A stretch of DNA of 64,000 bases, taken from an uncultured Alphaproteobacteria bacterium (GTDB taxonomy: Bacteria; Pseudomonadota; Alphaproteobacteria; RF32; CAG-239). Under the pieces are notes generated by a model. It was given only the letters and a program-made list of their open reading frames with translations, made no database searches and was not told the origin of the DNA. Numbering within the stretch: the stretch's first letter is position 1; every line of letters begins with the position of its first letter. Location of the stretch: NCBI GenBank assembly GCA_934277545.1, contig CAKQUG010000008.1:6862-70861 (forward strand), written 5' to 3'. Both the position numbers and the translations under genes were made by a program. Shown one piece after another: positions 4,266 through 57,955 of the stretch.

Positions 4266-5147
4266 TTATATTTTCGTTTTTTTGCAATAACCAACCTGCT
4301 GCAGACGAAACATAATTTCCTCGTCGGCTTTTTTGAGTTCTGCCGCATCGGAACCGCTTTCTTTCAGCAAACCGGAATAAGCATCTAAAATCAACTGCAT
4401 ATCATTTGCCGGAATATTACACTCCACACTATAATCTTTAAAGCTGTCATTCATACTTAGTTGATTCAGCAAACGAATGGTACAGCCCCCCTTTTCCACC
4501 TTAGAAGTAAGTCCCTTGGTTATAGCAATATCGTTATTGGTGCGGCGGTGTAAATATGCGTTATGTCCGCTGCCGCTTTTACTGCACAAATTAAGTTCTT
4601 GCAGCAAGCCTGCATATTCATATTGCGGTTGATATGTTGTAATGTCATTATTTATGAGCAACTGTCTAATATCTGTCATACTATGAATATTCGGCAGTAA
4701 TTCAGTCGGAACAGACAGTACAAAATCATCATAGCGAAGCTGACATTTACCATTTACTTTTCCTACAACCTCAATTTCTTCAAATCCGGCTAAATTCTGC
4801 CATTCTCTTGCCGATTGACACTGATACAGCGCACCCATAAAATCTGCCGAAAAATTACTCGGGTTCGGAGCATATTCCACCGGTTTCGGTTCAGGTTCAG
4901 GTTCAGGTTCAGATTCAGGCTCTTGTTCCGCTGTTTCTGACGCATTTTCATCATCTGCCGCAGGAGTTTCAGTATTGTCTGCATTATCTGAATTTATATT
5001 TTCATCTTCCTCATCAGTTAAATAAGCACTCTCTTCATCAATCGCCGAATTTTCCGTTCCGGTTTTAGGCTCTTCCATTAACAACGGTTCGGCAAACGCC
5101 GGAAACGTTAGCATAAAAGCAAGTAAAATAACCAAATGTTTTTTCAT
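4266..5147 (-). CDS. Secreted acidic protein with an (EP)n low-complexity tract
   Basis: Signal peptide MKKHLVILLAFMLTFPAFA. PEPEPEPEPKP is encoded by a (TTCAGG)n-type hexanucleotide repeat near 4880..4910. Strongly acidic N-terminal half. Confidence 0.6.
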   Translation of the reverse strand: MKKHLVILLAFMLTFPAFAEPLLMEEPKTGTENSAIDEESAYLTDEEDENINSDNADNTETPAADDENASETAEQEPESEPEPEPEPKPVEYAPNPSNFSADFMGALYQCQSAREWQNLAGFEEIEVVGKVNGKCQLRYDDFVLSVPTELLPNIHSMTDIRQLLINNDITTYQPQYEYAGLLQELNLCSKSGSGHNAYLHRRTNNDIAITKGLTSKVEKGGCTIRLLNQLSMNDSFKDYSVECNIPANDMQLILDAYSGLLKESGSDAAELKKADEEIMFRLQQVGYCKKTKI

Positions 5148-10691: not shown

Positions 10692-10779
10692 AATATACGC
10701 GTGTTCTTTTATGCTTTACATTTTTGTTTTTGCCCCTTAATATACATGTATCAATTAACCCAAAAATGAGGAAAGAAAG

Positions 10780-10842
10780 ATGAAAAATAAGCTATTCAAA
10801 GGTCTCTCTCTCTCTCTCTGCAAATCCTATATCTCTAATTAG
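10780..10842 (+). other. Short upstream ORF (MKNKLFKGLSLSLCKSYISN*) with a strong RBS (GAGGAAAG), out of frame by one relative to the downstream pilin-like ORF; contains the (TC)8 tract
   Basis: ATG at 10780 is preceded by gaggaaagaaag. The pilin-like reading frame is open from 10784 to 11581 but has no ATG before 10985. Adding one TC unit to (TC)8 fuses the ATG at 10780 to the pilin-like frame. Confidence 0.5.
10803..10818. repeat. (TC)8 dinucleotide simple sequence repeat (candidate slipped-strand phase-variation tract)
   Basis: ggTCTCTCTCTCTCTCTCtgcaaatcc read directly. It lies between the RBS-linked ATG and the conserved pilin-like coding region. Confidence 0.8.
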
Positions 10843-10984
10843 AGGCACTTTTTTCGCCGTTGCAGAGGTATTTACAGAGTTTTACGCTAAAATCAGCAAA
10901 CTGTCCCCTCGCCTGTTCAGACGTCATTATACAACCTCGCCCTTTGCTCGCAATGACGAAAGACAAGGCGAAGTTGGTAGAAGC

Positions 10985-11581
10985 ATGATTGAAATGCTGG
11001 GCGTTTTGGCTATCATAGGCGTATTATCTGTCGGCGGTATTGCAGGATATACCAAAGCCATGGAAAAGTTTAAATACAACAAAATAACACAAGAATACAC
11101 AGATTTGATATTTGGTTTGTTGCCTTTTATCAATACTCTTCCCGATCAAAATGGCGAAAATAATGTAGTAAATGAAGGTATAACAGAGTTAGCCGATTCC
11201 TTAAATTTAATTCCTAAAACTTGGCGCATAACATCAAGTAAAGTGGTAATGGATGAATATGGCAACAATTTGAACTTATTTATCAGAAACGGACAACTTG
11301 TTTTAGATGTTTACTTGTCTGTAAGCGGAGAAAGTCAACAATTTTACAAATTTTGCCAAGAATTTACAACAAACTTTATTCAGCCTTTACACTCTGTTTT
11401 ATATCGTTTGAGAATGTATAAAGCATCAGGCGTGGGCACTGTACGCGTTTATTACGGCAGCGATTATTGCACTGCAGATAATAAATGTATTAAAGACTTA
11501 ACCGTTGCAGAAACCGATAATTATTGCAGAAGCTGCGGTGAAAGTGGAAAATGCGCCTTAGCTTTTGAATTTCCTAAATAA
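10985..11581 (+). CDS. Type IV pilin-like / pseudopilin-like protein (class III prepilin N-terminal domain); the expressed form probably extends upstream (open frame from 10784)
   Basis: ..GEVG|RSMIEMLGVLAIIGVLSVGGIAGYTKAMEKFK matches the prepilin processing and hydrophobic-helix consensus (G at -1, E at +5, roughly 20 hydrophobic residues). Paralog of the 23086..23859 gene. C-terminal Cys pair. Confidence 0.6.
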   Translation: MIEMLGVLAIIGVLSVGGIAGYTKAMEKFKYNKITQEYTDLIFGLLPFINTLPDQNGENNVVNEGITELADSLNLIPKTWRITSSKVVMDEYGNNLNLFIRNGQLVLDVYLSVSGESQQFYKFCQEFTTNFIQPLHSVLYRLRMYKASGVGTVRVYYGSDYCTADNKCIKDLTVAETDNYCRSCGESGKCALAFEFPK

Positions 11582-11636
11582 ACAACAAACACGGGGTAAG
11601 TTGCCCTGCCCCGTGTTTTGCGCTATAAGCAGCAAA

Positions 11637-14909: not shown

Positions 14910-15809
14910 TTACACTGTATGCAAATAGCGGGAAAGCCGAAAGTATTGACGCAAACTCCAAAGCAGACACATTTCCTTGCGAAAGCTGCCGTGTTTTTTG
15001 GAGTTGATTAAGCGACGGTAGAGATGATTGAGATAAAACAGCTGCACGCCGTAAAGCCAATATTCAGCACTGATTTCATTTTTCAACAGCGATTCAATCA
15101 TTTTCCGCAGCTTGGCAAAACGCCCTATTCTGCCCCATAAGCCGCGAAAACCGCTCAGTTGTAAAAACAGGTAACAAATATCTTCAGTTTCGTAACCATA
15201 GCGGATTTGTTCAAAGTCAAGCAAATACGGCGTTCCGTTTTTATCCAGCAAAATATTGTTTTCCGTCAAATCGCCGTGAATAAACTCGGCACTGCTTTCC
15301 AAACACACAAGTTCCGGCTCTATTTTTTGCCAAAAATATTTATTTAGTAAACGTCCGGACAAACTTTGGTCTTTTTGCAGACATTCTGAAATTTTTGCAA
15401 TCATTTTCGGCATATTTTGCTGCGGCTGAATAAATTCCGCCGGCAAATCGCAAGCCCGAAACTTATTATATTCCGCCTGCAGTTTGGTAAACAGCTCGGG
15501 CGAGCAATCTTTATATTTCAGCTTACGTCCAACCACATACGGCATTGCCAATAAATAAAAATTTGCAAACTTTTCCACAGACAGCGGATACAAAAAATCT
15601 AGCTGCGACAACACCTTTTTCATATACAAAAATACGCCTCTCTCTCTCTCTGCAGAAATCAGCTTCAAGAAGAATACGCCTTGTACCGTTTTAATGCAAA
15701 AATTATACGAACTGCCGCCTAAACAAACTTCTTTAATACTCAATATTTGAGGAAAAATTTGCTTTTTTCGTAGGAAATCGGCTAATTCTTTGTTTTGAGC
15801 AAACTTCAC
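14910..15809 (-). CDS. Choline/ethanolamine-kinase / aminoglycoside-phosphotransferase (APH/ChoK) family kinase; contains an in-frame (CT)7/(GA)7 tract
   Basis: Brenner-type catalytic motif IHGDLTENNILL plus a downstream DFE. Roughly 300 aa, as in LicA-type choline kinases. The start overlaps the pheA stop by 4 nt. Confidence 0.65.
   Translation of the reverse strand: MKFAQNKELADFLRKKQIFPQILSIKEVCLGGSSYNFCIKTVQGVFFLKLISAERERGVFLYMKKVLSQLDFLYPLSVEKFANFYLLAMPYVVGRKLKYKDCSPELFTKLQAEYNKFRACDLPAEFIQPQQNMPKMIAKISECLQKDQSLSGRLLNKYFWQKIEPELVCLESSAEFIHGDLTENNILLDKNGTPYLLDFEQIRYGYETEDICYLFLQLSGFRGLWGRIGRFAKLRKMIESLLKNEISAEYWLYGVQLFYLNHLYRRLINSKKHGSFRKEMCLLWSLRQYFRLSRYLHTV
15638..15651. repeat. (CT)7 dinucleotide repeat inside the kinase CDS (encodes ERER on the coding strand)
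   Basis: cgcCTCTCTCTCTCTCTgcagaaatc read directly. Flanks resemble those of the (TC)8 tract at 10803. Confidence 0.8.
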
Positions 15810-23085: not shown

Positions 23086-23859
23086 TTACAAAAACTCCAT
23101 TACAAATATGCATAAATCATTATTTAACCGGCAAGTATTGCAAACATTTTGAATTTCGGTCATTGACGCGTTTACCAAACAATTATTACCGGAACAATAT
23201 TTATCGCCTAAAAAGTATGTTCCGTCGACCTGGTCTCGATAAACACCGGCACGAAAAACAATGCCATGCAACGGCTGCAGCAAGTCTCTTAACAAATTCG
23301 TACACATTTTATAGGAAAAAGTTTCCGTAATATATTTATTATTAACGGATTTACCTGTTCCCAAGTGAACATCAAAAACAAGATGCTGCGACCGAATAAA
23401 GGGTACAACCTGATTTCCGGTTGAATCATAAAAAACAGAACCTGATTTTTTCCAGCTTCCGGGAACAAGATTCATCCCTTCAACCACATTTGCAATTATA
23501 TATGATTCTGAAATAGAGGAAAGCGGTGTAAAAGAACTTTCATGTTCAAGCAAACCGCTGATTAAATAACTGTATTCTTCCAACAATTTATTCAGCTTAA
23601 ATTTTTCCATAGCTTTGGAGTAACCGGCAATTCCACCGACACTCAGCACGGCGATAATCGCCAGAACACCAAGCATTTCTATCATTGACCGACCAACCTC
23701 GCCTTGTTTTTCGTCATTATGAGCACAGCGAAGCAATGACGATAGAGTATGGGGCAAAGTTGATTGATTGCATCGTTTTACTCGCAATGACGATAGAGTA
23801 TGGGACAAAGTTTTAAATGTCCTACTCTTCTTCAATAAAAATTCTATACCTTTCAACAC
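23086..23859 (-). CDS. Type IV pilin-like / pseudopilin-like protein with a 58-aa N-terminal extension (GTG start, RBS AAGGAGG); paralog of the 10985..11581 gene
   Basis: ..HNDEKQGEVG|RSMIEMLGVLAIIAVLSVGGIAGYSKAMEKFK aligns with the other paralog. Differences in the NDE-K/R-QGEVGRS codons are synonymous (aga/cgg, agc/tca, gaa/gag). The extension contains a 17-aa tandem duplication (TLSHTLSSL / TLPHTLSSL). Confidence 0.6.
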   Translation of the reverse strand: MLKGIEFLLKKSRTFKTLSHTLSSLRVKRCNQSTLPHTLSSLLRCAHNDEKQGEVGRSMIEMLGVLAIIAVLSVGGIAGYSKAMEKFKLNKLLEEYSYLISGLLEHESSFTPLSSISESYIIANVVEGMNLVPGSWKKSGSVFYDSTGNQVVPFIRSQHLVFDVHLGTGKSVNNKYITETFSYKMCTNLLRDLLQPLHGIVFRAGVYRDQVDGTYFLGDKYCSGNNCLVNASMTEIQNVCNTCRLNNDLCIFVMEFL

Positions 23860-23876: not shown

Positions 23877-23896
23877 GTGTAAAAAAAACGACCGTT
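23877..23896. repeat. Left 20-bp inverted repeat GTGTAAAAAAAACGACCGTT bounding a 134-bp segment (candidate invertible promoter or MITE)
   Basis: Perfect 20/20 reverse complement of 24031..24050. Starts 17 bp upstream of the pilin-like gene start codon. Confidence 0.8.
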
Positions 23897-24030: not shown

Positions 24031-24050
24031 AACGGTCGTTTTTTTTACAC
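24031..24050. repeat. Right 20-bp inverted repeat AACGGTCGTTTTTTTTACAC
   Basis: Perfect complement of 23877..23896. The AACG/CGTT arms flank an asymmetric central dinucleotide. Confidence 0.8.
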
Positions 24051-50836: not shown

Positions 50837-51310
50837 TTAAACCTGCGAACGCTGGCGAAATGAATAATATTTATGCAGTATAAAAGTTGTGATGGTTGAA
50901 AAAGTTAAATATAATGCTTGCGCCACCAGCGGAGACAAGCCGACAACCACCATCAAAAAACTCAAAATCGGCGAGTTTATCAAATATAAAAACAAATACA
51001 CCGACCAGGCCTTGACAAACTCTTTTTTCCAATCGCCATGGCTTTGAAAAACATAGTAGCGCATAGTTAAAAAAGAAACATTGATAGTAATAACATATTG
51101 TACGAACAACGCCGCATTAGCCACCCAAACCTGAGCAAATTCCAACCCCGCCGAGGTGTTGATATTTTCAAACAGCCACAGAATTAAGGCTAAAATCGTA
51201 TAAGCAAAAACAGTATTAAAACCGCCGACAAGCAAAAAACGCAGCTTTTGCGGCAGCTTAAACCAAATATTTTCTGCCCATAGATAAAGTTTGATAAAAG
51301 GCTTAATCAT
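50837..51310 (-). CDS. GtrA-family membrane protein (polyprenyl-phosphate-sugar handling)
   Basis: Four TM helices with a conserved ..RFLLVGGFNTVFAY.. N-terminal motif. Confidence 0.7.
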   Translation of the reverse strand: MIKPFIKLYLWAENIWFKLPQKLRFLLVGGFNTVFAYTILALILWLFENINTSAGLEFAQVWVANAALFVQYVITINVSFLTMRYYVFQSHGDWKKEFVKAWSVYLFLYLINSPILSFLMVVVGLSPLVAQALYLTFSTITTFILHKYYSFRQRSQV

Positions 51311-52166
51311 TTATCCCCTCCGCCACATTTTTATCTAAAAGTGTTTCTAATTCCACCGTGCGATATGGCGATAAAATATTTTCGTCCCACACGTCCTCGG
51401 GATATTGCCTGTCAATTTCAGGCATACCCGGGTGAATCATAATTTCCACCGCTTTATATCCGGACGGTATTTTTACATTATTAAACTGCTCTTTAGCTAT
51501 TTTGCAAGTATACATAAGCGTATAAAAATACACATCGTTTTTATAGCCGTTCCACCAACATAAAAAACGCAACAATACATATTTTATCAGAGCTCCGTCA
51601 AACAACCAGCTTTTATTTTTGTTATATTTCAAGGTGTTGAAAATATTTTCATTCATCACTCGAATACGCGGCACGGCAAACTCTTTCTGTAATTCACGCA
51701 TTGCTTTGAAAATTTGCGGAATTAAATGCACATGCCGATGGCTATCGATATGCTGCAAAGACAAACCGGTTGCCAGATATTTGACAATTTGCGCACGCAT
51801 TTCAATTTCCGCCTGCTGACGCAGCTGCCGCGGTTTCAAAAACGAAAGCAGCAGCAAATTAACAAATCCGTTTTTCAATTTGCCCTGCCCGTCCACCAGC
51901 AGCGGAATTTGCTGCACCGGCGCCGCCGGATATTCATTGGTCAGGTTAACATGCAGGCCGATTTCCAAATCCGGCATTTCTTTAGCCGATTTCACGGCTT
52001 CAGCGGCGTATTTTTGATTTATCATCAAACTGGCGCTGTTCAAAATTCCCTCGCGATGAGCTTTAACGATTGCCGCGTTCACACCTTTGCTGATACCAAA
52101 ATCATCGGCGTTAAATATCTTTTTTATCGTCATGTTTATCTTCTTTCGCCACATAATCAGCCACAT
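51303..52166 (-). CDS. YdjC/ChbG-family carbohydrate deacetylase (NaxD/LgmC-like)
   Basis: ..FNADDFGISKGVNAAIVKAHREGILNSASLM.. and ..LHVNLT.. metal-site motifs of the YdjC superfamily. A start at internal Met12 (MTIKK, better RBS) is possible. Confidence 0.7.
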   Translation of the reverse strand: MWLIMWRKKINMTIKKIFNADDFGISKGVNAAIVKAHREGILNSASLMINQKYAAEAVKSAKEMPDLEIGLHVNLTNEYPAAPVQQIPLLVDGQGKLKNGFVNLLLLSFLKPRQLRQQAEIEMRAQIVKYLATGLSLQHIDSHRHVHLIPQIFKAMRELQKEFAVPRIRVMNENIFNTLKYNKNKSWLFDGALIKYVLLRFLCWWNGYKNDVYFYTLMYTCKIAKEQFNNVKIPSGYKAVEIMIHPGMPEIDRQYPEDVWDENILSPYRTVELETLLDKNVAEGIND

Positions 52167-53079
52167 AAAGCGGACGTTTTTTCACTTCCATGTGAATTTT
52201 ACCTATATATTCGCCGATAATTCCCAAGCAAATCAGCTGCACTGAGCCCAAAAAAATCACCGTAATCATAATGGTGGCATAACCCGGGGTCGGATTATGC
52301 ATAAAGAAATGTTCAACAAACACATAAACTCCCAGCAAAAAAGCCGTAGTTGCCGCCAGCAATCCCAAATATATGGCAAAACGTAGCGGCAACACCGAAA
52401 ACTGAACAATGCTGTTAACCGCCAAATGCAGCGACTTAAAAAAGTTATATTTAGATTCGCCGCTGAAACGTTCCGGCGCCACAAAATCAATAATCGCCAC
52501 ATGGTCGTGCGGCATAATCCAGCTTAAAAGCCCTCTGAACAAGCGGTCTTGTTCGTTAAATCCTTTCAAAAAATCCACATACTTACGATCCAGCAGCCGA
52601 AAATCCGGCGCGCTTTCCATAATTTTAGTATCCGACAGCTTGTTTAAAATAAAATAGAAAGTCTTGGCGCAAAACTTATACAGCTTGGAAGTTGCTTTGT
52701 TGTCCACCCTCTTGGTCAGCACGATTTCCTTGCCCTTCTGCCATAACTCAATCATTTTCGGAATATAAACCGGCGGATGCTGCAAATCTGAATCCATAAA
52801 GATAACTGCGTCGCCTTTGGCATAGTCCATACCGGCTGTCATAGCGATTTCATGTCCAAAATTGCGTTTGAGTTGCACAACTTTAACCCGACTGTCTTTT
52901 TCTTGTAATTTTAAACAATTGGAATAGGTTTTATCCGAACTGCCGTCATCCACATACAAAAACTCAAAATCCACATTTTTAACCTTTTCCAGCTTTTTAA
53001 GCAGTTGGTTATAAAGCTCTCTCACATTATCCTGCTCATTATAAGCTGAAATAACTATGCTAACCAGTTTATTCGGCAT
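52111..53079 (-). CDS. GT2-family polyprenyl-phosphate glycosyltransferase (ArnC/LgmA/DPM1-like)
   Basis: ..VSIVISAYNEQDNV.., DxD-type ..YVDDGSSD.. and ..DSDLQHPP.. motifs, plus two C-terminal TM helices. Confidence 0.8.
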   Translation of the reverse strand: MPNKLVSIVISAYNEQDNVRELYNQLLKKLEKVKNVDFEFLYVDDGSSDKTYSNCLKLQEKDSRVKVVQLKRNFGHEIAMTAGMDYAKGDAVIFMDSDLQHPPVYIPKMIELWQKGKEIVLTKRVDNKATSKLYKFCAKTFYFILNKLSDTKIMESAPDFRLLDRKYVDFLKGFNEQDRLFRGLLSWIMPHDHVAIIDFVAPERFSGESKYNFFKSLHLAVNSIVQFSVLPLRFAIYLGLLAATTAFLLGVYVFVEHFFMHNPTPGYATIMITVIFLGSVQLICLGIIGEYIGKIHMEVKKRPLYVADYVAKEDKHDDKKDI

Positions 53080-54535
53080 TTTTCGCCTCCTTTACATTAT
53101 AAAATCCCACAAACAAATCACGAATTTTCATTCTGCCGCTAAGCGACGTATATGCGGCTTTTATATTTTGCGGAGTTGTGAGTTTGTCTCCGAATTTTTC
53201 TTTATATTTCATATAATCGCGGTAATTTGAAGACACTACCAACGCCCCTTTTTCTTCAAAATCTGCAGTGTCAAACCAAGGATTATTGTCGGGACTGAGC
53301 CAAATCATCGGTTTTACCTCATGTCCGGCATAAAGCGCAAACATATCGGCAAACCACACATCGGCTCCGACATATTCCAATTTTTGCCCGCCGGTGTATT
53401 CCGTCCATTTCTGCTCCAGCATATTAACCATGGTAGGACAATCCGTGCGAAAACGCTCGCTGGTAGTGATTAGACACTGCACGCCGTAAGCAATGGCAAA
53501 CAGCAAGCTCCACCCGGCCATAACCGCCGAATAGCGCAAAGTTTTGCTCTCATTGACTTTTATAGGCCAAAAATATACCAGCATAATTCCGATTAAAAAT
53601 TGGCACGGAAATCCCCACATACTTTTTAACGGAGTACCTGCCACCATACTTATTGTCATAAAAACCATCATAGGTAAAAAACCGCAAATCAGTAAAAAAC
53701 GTCCGTTTTCATCATTACACGCCGGTTTATTTTCCTTTTCTGAAAATTTATAAAATACCGCATAGCAAAGCAAAGCTGCGCCCGCAAACAAAATCTGCGC
53801 GCCGGCGAATTTCAGCGGATACAGCAAATGCCGCCATTCACTGTCCATAATTTTAGTTGAAGTGTTGCGCATTAAAATATAGTTAAGCATTTCAAAATTA
53901 TGCTCGGCCAGCCACCAAATATGCGGCGTCAGTACTGCAACCACACACAGCACCGCTGCATACGCCTTATAGTTTATAAACTGCTTCCAACCTTTGACGC
54001 CGGTCAGTAAAAAAACACCTATAGCTCCCAAAAGCAAAACGCCTGTATATTTATTCAGCAGGTTAATTCCTCCGAACAGCCCGAACAGCAACCAATCTTT
54101 CAGCCGGTTTTGCCGATATGCCTGCAAAAAGTAATAAGTACACATCGGCCATAGCGCCAATGATATGACGTTTACGTTAAATTCAACGCTGGAAAAATCA
54201 TAGTAAATAATCCCAAACTGCAGCATTGCCGCCAAAACGGCTTTATATTCATCCATAAACAAGCGCGCCAATTTATAAATATAGACAATTCCCAGCGCCG
54301 TAAAAATTTGGCTTAGCAAATACATAGCACCGTCAAATCTGCCGAACATCAAATAAAAGTAATATGCGATAATCCCCGAAAACGGCGGATGCTTGGTGGT
54401 TCCGAGCAAGCTGTATTTTCCCCACACAATAGCCTCCTGCGTGTCCATCGGCAGGCTTAGACGCAGCAGCGGCACCACACTCCACAACACCAAATTACAT
54501 AACAAGAACAGTCCGAATTTCTTTTTTAGCGACAT
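53069..54535 (-). CDS. GT-C-fold glycosyltransferase (ArnT/PMT, GT83/GT39-like) integral membrane protein
   Basis: About 12 TM helices with a conserved N-terminal periplasmic-loop region. First gene of the four-gene minus-strand cluster. Confidence 0.7.
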   Translation of the reverse strand: MSLKKKFGLFLLCNLVLWSVVPLLRLSLPMDTQEAIVWGKYSLLGTTKHPPFSGIIAYYFYLMFGRFDGAMYLLSQIFTALGIVYIYKLARLFMDEYKAVLAAMLQFGIIYYDFSSVEFNVNVISLALWPMCTYYFLQAYRQNRLKDWLLFGLFGGINLLNKYTGVLLLGAIGVFLLTGVKGWKQFINYKAYAAVLCVVAVLTPHIWWLAEHNFEMLNYILMRNTSTKIMDSEWRHLLYPLKFAGAQILFAGAALLCYAVFYKFSEKENKPACNDENGRFLLICGFLPMMVFMTISMVAGTPLKSMWGFPCQFLIGIMLVYFWPIKVNESKTLRYSAVMAGWSLLFAIAYGVQCLITTSERFRTDCPTMVNMLEQKWTEYTGGQKLEYVGADVWFADMFALYAGHEVKPMIWLSPDNNPWFDTADFEEKGALVVSSNYRDYMKYKEKFGDKLTTPQNIKAAYTSLSGRMKIRDLFVGFYNVKEAKNAE

Positions 54536-57891: not shown

Positions 57892-57955
57892 ATTGTAATT
57901 AAAAAAAAACACATTTACACTGACTATATTGCAATTATTTATAAAGGAGAAAAAA

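Follow-up and report, generated by a model that had tools for sequence, protein, structure and literature searches.

The window, a 64,000-nucleotide stretch of DNA from an uncultured Alphaproteobacteria bacterium, carries at 10780-11581 a gene whose product is predicted to be a type IVb-like prepilin. Translation of this prepilin is very probably gated by a hypermutable (TC)n tract through slipped-strand phase variation. The candidate promoter, start codon and tract of the gene recur as a 5' module in front of other pilin genes in related genomes. Such a locus would be a simple-sequence repeat (SSR) contingency locus, a kind that is already known; what is new is the pilin family of this uncultured gut bacterium, which is unusually large and has not been described before.

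The ATG at 10780 follows a strong ribosome-binding site and opens a short frame that ends at 10842. The pilin-like frame stays open over 10784-11581, without an ATG, GTG or TTG before the ATG at 10985. The two ATG codons are separated by 205 nt (1 mod 3), and the gain of one TC unit (2 nt) or the loss of 1 nt joins the frame of the first to that of the pilin. The (TC)8 tract lies between them. All of this agrees with the initial annotation of the window, as does the OFF state of the sequenced 8-unit allele; the in-frame (ON) lengths are 6, 9 and 12 units. The features are as follows.

10715-10743, + strand: candidate sigma-70 promoter of the pilin gene (TTTACA, 17-nt spacer, TAATAT), from a consensus scan
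10768-10775, + strand: ribosome-binding site GAGGAAAG, read from the sequence and nearly invariant across the aligned module copies
10780-10782, + strand: ATG, start of the prepilin (ON) and of a 20-codon abortive open reading frame (ORF) in the present OFF state
10780-10842, + strand: abortive OFF-state ORF MKNKLFKGLSLSLCKSYISN, with its TAG stop at 10840-10842
10803-10818, + strand: (TC)8 simple-sequence repeat, the putative frame switch (alternative reading T(CT)8 at 10803-10819)
10820-10975, + strand: leader-peptide coding region in the pilin frame (ANPISLIRGTFF...NDERQGEV), stop-free and without amino-acid constraint
10976-10984, + strand: Gly(-1), Arg(+1) and Ser(+2) codons, where a prepilin peptidase is predicted to cleave (G|RS)
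10979-11581, + strand: predicted mature type IVb-like pilin and stop codon, 200 residues from Arg+1, with Glu+5 at 10991-10993
11588-11617, + strand: terminator-like hairpin with its 3' arm running into a U tract, located between pilin and adhE, which are convergent (RNA fold -23.5 kcal/mol, z -3.98)
15638-15651, + strand: control tract (CT)7, separate from the switch, inside an APH/choline-kinase-like gene (14910-15809, minus strand)
23086-23859, - strand: paralogous pilin gene with a "B-type" 5' module, GTG start after GGAGGA, 56-residue leader, then G|RSMIEML, without a repeat tract

The tract begins with the third position of codon 8, 23 nt past the A of the ATG. It is thus an uninterrupted repeat within an ORF, just 3' of the start codon, with a unit length that is not a multiple of 3. 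A TC run of 12 nt was expected 0.00 times in 100 shuffles, and the window has one other such tract, at 15638-15651.

Tract length among strains and paralogs

All tract lengths were taken from consensus assemblies. The syntenic dinB / pilin / adhE locus was compared between the window and 11 other metagenome assemblies. The tract has 7 units in six of the twelve (L003, L004, L005, L075, L077 and L078), 8 units in five (the window, L073, L074, L079 and L080) and 13 units in one (L002), and it is the only indel over ~3.6 kb of pairwise alignments. In these alignments the 8-unit window shows 26-30 mismatches to 7-unit strains and 115 to L074, which also has 8 units. L074 and L075, with 8 and 7 units, have an identical 588-nt mature coding sequence. 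Tract length therefore does not track strain relatedness, which indicates that it has changed repeatedly.

The control tract, 4.8 kb away from the pilin tract, is 7 units long in the window, L002 and L003, whereas the pilin tract of these three has 8, 13 and 7 units, respectively. The invariance of the control tract in three strains argues against assembly noise. The control tract is located ~53 codons into an intact ORF and is followed by the same GCA as the pilin tract. Other simple repeats in the window are A9 at 57901-57909 and (GGTTCA)4 at 4888-4911; the latter lies inside the coordinates of an ORF at 4266-5147 (minus strand) and has a frame-neutral unit.

The initial annotation had raised the question of further (TC)n or (CT)n tracts at gene 5' ends. 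The pattern ATGAAAAAYAARCTNTYNAAAGKT(CT)n gave 47 matches in one-per-species genomes, all of them in three metagenome-assembled genomes (MAGs) of "uncultured Alphaproteobacteria bacterium" from the Hadza gut: 28 in CAKQDU01, 18 in CAKQRZ01 and 1 in CAKQLF01. An additional 24 matches were found in metagenome contigs. Every module copy has its own -35 and -10 hexamers, ribosome-binding site and ATG. The promoter of ~40 related copies reads TTGACT, 16/17 nt and TATAGAAT, with conserved hexamers and a variable spacer. The tract is pure in 77/77 module copies examined, and it is always flanked by GGT/GTT and GCA.

The leader, codon and tract counts given below refer to 53 complete genes that share this 5' module (module A). 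Their tracts have 6 units (n = 5), 7 units (n = 38), 8 units (n = 8), 9 units (n = 1) or 13 units (n = 1), so that 6 genes are ON and 47 are OFF. Four other paralogs are each represented by a pair of alleles, one with 7 units (OFF) from a MAG and one with 6 units (ON) from another sample, which are at least 93% identical in the mature part (L007/L065, L009/L059, L015/L067 and L025/L048). Together with the three lengths at the window locus, these pairs support the earlier proposal of a mutable switch. Populations differ in how many genes are ON: 1-2 of 28 in CAKQDU01, zero among the complete genes of CAKQRZ01, and 3 of 10 in sample ERZ1034949, where one further 6-unit copy is cut off at a contig end.

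Orphan copies of the promoter, ATG, (TC)n and leader that lack a pilin were found at L017:5664(-), L031:355(+) and L047:5684(+). The leader of these copies enters unrelated sequence and stops; the copy in L031 has 9 units and is in frame. Contigs end within the module, or no more than ~100 nt from it, in L006, L014, L022, L035, L038, L052, L055, L057, L060, L063, L064, L067 and L068, as fits a repeat of 18-28 copies that breaks assemblies. The pilin gene counts in the MAGs are therefore underestimates.

The predicted pilin

The predicted mature protein begins G|RSMIEMLGVLAIIGVLSVGGIAGY, is 200 residues long and has Glu at +5. The class III leader of a type IV pilin has Gly as its last residue and precedes a stretch of ~21 hydrophobic residues that Glu at +5 interrupts; Gly-1 is critical for processing (PMC4471445). 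Type IVb prepilins comprise ~180-200 residues with leaders of ~15-30 residues, and prepilin leaders are generally 6-26 residues long (PMC4471445). The 200-residue mature part fits the type IVb size, and the 66-residue leader of the ON form of the window gene falls outside the ~15-30 range. Leaders are 66-230 residues long in the other module-A genes and 6-9 or ~32 residues long in other paralogs.

In an alignment of 68 family members, Glu6 (= +5), Met7, Leu8, Gly9 and six cysteines are invariant, and Gly1, Arg2 and Ser3 are at least 90% conserved. Paralogs with short leaders read M-x5-7-G|RS, as in MKQNQF-G|RS and MYKNFEK-G|RS. These canonical short prepilin leaders fix G|RS as the processing site, in line with the cleavage site G|RSMIE put forward in the initial annotation. 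Fold comparison identified a pilin fold, with a long N-terminal helix packed on an antiparallel beta-sheet.

The family has more than 7000 database homologs, all of which are unannotated or "Alphaproteobacteria bacterium" MAG proteins; for one member the NCBI name is FimT/FimU or GspH-family. A total of 110 family genes is present in 594 kb of related sequence, and many of these have canonical short leaders. A sequence-profile search of the PDB returned no relative. No paper describing the family was found in the literature on its motif or on pilins of RF32 and gut Alphaproteobacteria.

Translation of the leader and alternative explanations

In the 53 genes, the leader frame contains 4 stops in 4794 codons, all in one locus, whereas the other two frames have 383 and 255. 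Between the tract and Gly-Arg-Ser, 52/53 genes have no stop in the pilin frame, over a distance of 54 to ~230 codons. The Gly-Arg-Ser ahead of MIEML is encoded by four Gly codons, five Arg codons plus AAA, and five Ser codons (from both Ser families) plus AAT. The paralog at 23086-23859 encodes ...HNDEKQGEVGRSMIEML / ...NDEKQGEVGRSMIEML, with the codon differences aga/cgg (Arg), agc/tca (Ser) and gaa/gag (Glu) from the gene at 10780, exactly as first reported. Homologs P0008, P0009, P0011, P0012 and P0021 begin MKNKLFK(G/V)LSLS... and continue in frame into the pilin; P0008 has 9 units and the other four have 6. On this codon evidence the leader is translated, as the initial annotation had argued. 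Most simply, a ribosome that initiates at the module ATG has to be capable of reading on into the pilin.

The N-terminal extension had also been described as conserved, with an excess of synonymous change to be expected upstream of MIEML as more paralogs are added. This description applies to Gly-Arg-Ser and fails for the rest of the leader. Across paralogs, the ratio of nonsynonymous to synonymous differences per site (pN/pS) is 0.77 for the first 33 leader codons, where pS is just 0.23, and 0.15 for the first 33 mature codons, where pS is 0.67 and synonymous sites are near saturation. Since the leader value is close to those of the wrong frames, the leader is conserved as DNA (or not at all) rather than as protein. 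Apart from Gly-Arg-Ser, its conservation as DNA most likely reflects homogenisation of the module.

Several observations weigh against a phase-variable pilin gene. At the locus, each of the 12 tract lengths read, including that of the window, is an OFF state; no ON allele of the window gene was seen, and a protein search with the repaired ON form as the query gave no in-frame version of it. A second protein search for ON alleles (6, 9 or 12 units), with the leader alone, returned only 7 short matches and was uninformative. The predominance of 7 units among the module genes is a narrower spread than that of a freely drifting tract, and homogenisation of the module by gene conversion could account for it rather than frequent slippage. 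Arg at +1 of the predicted mature protein is unusual for a pilin. Both window paralogs score below threshold against the prepilin models of Pfam and NCBIfam; the scores of the predicted pilin are 9.7 bits for N_methyl PF07963 (cutoff 21.2) and 12 bits for TIGR02532 (cutoff 16.3). Genes for a prepilin peptidase or for pilus assembly were found neither in the 10 window ORFs tested with Pfam nor in the ~594 kb of the window plus related loci, which are a fraction of any genome. Motif scans of the 594 kb detected no GspE/PilB-type ATPase, CpaF-type ATPase or A24 peptidase GxGD motif. The scarcity of ON alleles in the consensus fits a family of which each cell expresses few members, with any given locus OFF in most cells; selection against constitutive expression would fit as well.

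Four alternatives to phase variation (decay, internal initiation, ribosomal slippage by ±2 on (UC)n and assembly artefact) were considered. They are unlikely even when taken jointly, and each is contradicted by at least one direct result. If the gene were a decaying pseudogene, the tract would be an inactivating frameshift and its length differences would be neutral noise. Such decay would account for the out-of-frame tracts in all 12 assemblies and in 47/53 complete module genes, and for the orphan modules of L017, L031 and L047. Yet the mature region shows purifying selection among 7 OFF alleles of the window gene, with a pN/pS of 0.12 and polymorphic codons that are synonymous-only in 23 cases and amino-acid-changing in 9. 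Given that all of these alleles are OFF, this value indicates that the window gene is not a dead pseudogene. Moreover, the leader frame stays open in all but one of the genes, even where L002 has a 255-nt insertion; no copy has an interruption in its tract, which is always the sole lesion, and ON alleles exist for orthologues of other paralogs. Decay is accordingly judged improbable.

Initiation at the internal ATG at 10985 (or Met+7) would make the upstream region a 5' untranslated region with a small regulatory ORF, and the pilin would not be gated by the tract. This start is the one chosen by gene callers (P0003 and P0032), and Met is at least 90% conserved at that position; the initial annotation had likewise allowed for a leaderless product from it. 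That product is unlikely, because a Shine-Dalgarno core precedes the internal Met/ATG in only 4/53 genes, compared with 44/53 for the module ATG. In addition, the Gly-Arg-Ser located 5' of the Met is retained through synonymous changes that span two Ser and two Arg codon families, and Ile replaces the Met in some homologs (P0104). The stop-free leader frame also speaks against an untranslated region. The product of internal initiation would have Glu at +3 and would lack Gly-1, the residue critical for processing (PMC4471445). An ungated internal start is therefore very unlikely.

Recoding at the level of the RNA or ribosome is comparably doubtful. In this scheme tRNA would re-pair on (UC)n after a slip of +2 or -2, which would give low and constant expression of the 7- and 8-unit alleles without a change in the DNA. 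The two commonest lengths, 7 and 8 units, are exactly those that slips of +2 and -2, respectively, would rescue. However, no stimulatory structure or known slippery heptamer is present in the sequence, and an Rfam scan around the pilin gene gave no match. The in-frame 6- and 9-unit alleles differ from the OFF alleles in the DNA tract only, as a DNA-level switch predicts; such alleles would be unnecessary under recoding. Two further routes were ruled out. Ribosomal frameshifting by -1 at A-AAA-AAT would meet a TAA immediately, and an alternative upstream start for the 7-unit frame is closed by a TAA at +8..+10, except in a rare AAC variant (P0014). Lastly, repeats are hard to assemble and contigs often break at or near the module (e.g., L006, L014, L022, L052, L063 and L068), but assembly or sequencing artefacts are the least credible source of the tract lengths, since the same discrete lengths recur in independent assemblies (7 units in six, 8 in five), the control tract is identical in the three assemblies in which the pilin tract differs, and the contig breaks are accounted for by the 18-28-copy repeat.

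Mosaic leaders, related systems and implications

The leaders are mosaics of insertion modules that recur almost exclusively 5' of pilin genes, never with a stop codon in the pilin frame; among them are ...AERNNIAFKGLDVVRQY...LYAVSA, ...PVILGLVPRILLQ...DSRDKPEND... and ...VMDTRLPQPAGCGDKYD... (L002 4850-5170, L012, L019, L025, L032 and others). The insertion in the L002 allele of the window gene is of this kind (L002 4850-5170 compared with window 10890-10920). That the pieces are generic genome-wide miniature inverted-repeat transposable elements was rejected, because in the sequence examined they are almost confined to the region upstream of pilin genes. An element of ~110 nt encoding GRS-LLPQCALDATGFLSDVYKRSTRAKKFLADDVQ(G/S) lies exactly at the cleavage site, with Gly-Arg-Ser duplicated on either side (L014:7181(-), L050:360(-), L034, L051 and L066). 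This element looks like a targeted insertion with a target-site duplication.

A 7-bp inverted repeat is present in the leader region of the window gene (CGTCATT at 10922-10928 and AATGACG at 10952-10958). The "(A/H)RND(E/D)" stretch ahead of Gly-Arg-Ser (10922-10958 and 23711-23793) is part of this short palindromic motif, CGTCATT...AATGACG. In the 23086-23859 paralog the arms are 27 nt long and 78% complementary. Variants of the palindrome, read as LLRVARND or LLRRYTPRND, terminate most leaders. The motif could represent a small repeat element, or form a hairpin in the RNA.

Alleles of the window's pilin (P0129 and P0130; P0001, P0002 and P0004), 88-97% identical in the mature part where measured, have wholly different leaders, which include the B-type (MLEGIEFLRRKSRG...), MTGGRGANAS- and MSICVAYDNKVMDT... 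The presence of unlike leaders on the same mature pilin points to exchange of 5' modules between genes. Long mosaic leaders may serve as a recombination scaffold for such swaps.

A perfect 20-nt inverted repeat (GTGTAAAAAAAACGACCGTT / AACGGTCGTTTTTTTTACAC) is located directly upstream of the ribosome-binding site of the 23086-23859 paralog, with arms at 23877-23896 and 24031-24050 around 134 nt. The same cassette precedes every B-type pilin gene found (~20 copies), in constant orientation to the gene and often back-to-back with a (TC)n-module gene. The cassette may act as an operator or as an invertible promoter; no flipped copy was found among the ~20.

The ten window ORFs tested with Pfam had been considered as a possible Tad operon and were found instead to comprise a glycosylation cluster and unrelated genes. 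Genes for GtrA-like, YdjC-like, family-2 glycosyltransferase and PMT_2 (dolichyl-phosphate-mannose-type protein mannosyltransferase) proteins are present at 50837-54535 (minus strand). This cluster may be a surface or protein glycosylation system.

The arrangement most resembles that of the Neisseria opa genes. Up to 12 constitutively transcribed opa genes, each with its own promoter, contain CTCTT repeats in the leader-peptide coding region, and none to several are expressed per cell (PMC5354566). Both systems comprise a multicopy family with a promoter for each gene, a tract in the leader-coding region and a frame shift by gain or loss of units; removal of the leader and independent switching, as in opa, are predicted for the present genes. 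They differ in the unit, which is TC (2 nt) here and CTCTT (5 nt) in opa. The 66-230-residue unconstrained mosaic leader, the 18-28 modules per genome and the host, an uncultured gut alphaproteobacterium, also set the present system apart. In oipA and the hop family of Helicobacter pylori, CT dinucleotide repeats in the 5' coding region turn genes on and off by slipped-strand frameshifting (PMC10564699). The position in the 5' coding region and the CT/TC unit are the same as here, whereas the protein class is unrelated and the hop genes are individual members that lack a shared identical promoter / ATG / repeat module. The CT tract of oipA and the hop genes encodes Leu-Ser repeats within the signal sequence.

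The type IVb pilins TcpA (Vibrio cholerae), CofA (enterotoxigenic Escherichia coli) and PilS (Salmonella Typhi) have no detectable sequence similarity to the present family, in which Arg is found at +1. Their leaders are ~15-30 residues long, compared with 6 to more than 200 residues here, and each is the one major pilin of a pilus operon, in contrast to the dozens of scattered single-gene paralogs described above. None of these pilins is known to be gated by a repeat tract. As in Neisseria pilE/pilS, many pilin variants are present per genome, with a conserved N-terminal coding segment and divergent C-terminal parts. In Neisseria, the pilS copies are not expressed and have neither a promoter nor a 5' end. 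Every copy here has a promoter, ribosome-binding site and ATG, and variation would arise through frame switching; silent cassettes without a promoter, ribosome-binding site and start codon were not found among the module copies examined. Module swaps between genes do occur here, as with P0129, in which the same mature gene carries a B-type leader.

Each gene would be a self-contained unit of promoter, strong ribosome-binding site, ATG, tract, long cleavable leader, G|RS site, pilin and terminator. Slipped-strand mispairing during replication would add or remove TC units. With 6, 9 or 12 units, translation from the ATG would continue across the leader to the pilin (ON), and with 7, 8 or 13 units it would end after ~18-22 codons (OFF). 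The 8-unit state of the window would be one insertion from ON, and the dominant 7-unit state one deletion from ON. The leader would remain in the cytoplasm and be removed at Gly-1. It would then need only to be stop-free, and mosaic insertions would be tolerated. From these features we infer that the tract switches within the population, that a prepilin peptidase cleaves the leader, that the pilin is assembled into a pilus, and that the cell may gain from this through immune or phage evasion or variation in adhesion.

With 18-28 copies of the promoter / ATG / (TC)n module per related genome, in front of what would be different pilins, and with most copies OFF in the consensus, each cell line probably expresses a few pilin variants at random. 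On a broader view, which we hold with no more than even confidence, dozens of scattered type IVb-like pilin genes, about half of them behind one homogenised module, would allow the fibre to be varied combinatorially by independent frame switches, with the unconstrained mosaic leaders of 66-230 residues, well above the known 6-30, acting solely as a stop-free bridge.

Phase-variable surface structures are known mainly from cultured pathogens. Here a large set of pilin genes, each probably gated by a repeat, is found in an uncultured, non-pathogenic alphaproteobacterium of the human gut, with high abundance in Hadza and Nepali samples. Gene callers systematically make these genes too short; the window gene is represented in databases by a 195-residue fragment that starts inside the transmembrane helix. 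The family further suggests that a class III leader of hundreds of arbitrary residues is presumably still processed. The number of TC units at ~20-30 loci is a marker, countable in reads, from which strain-level on/off states could be followed in metagenomes.

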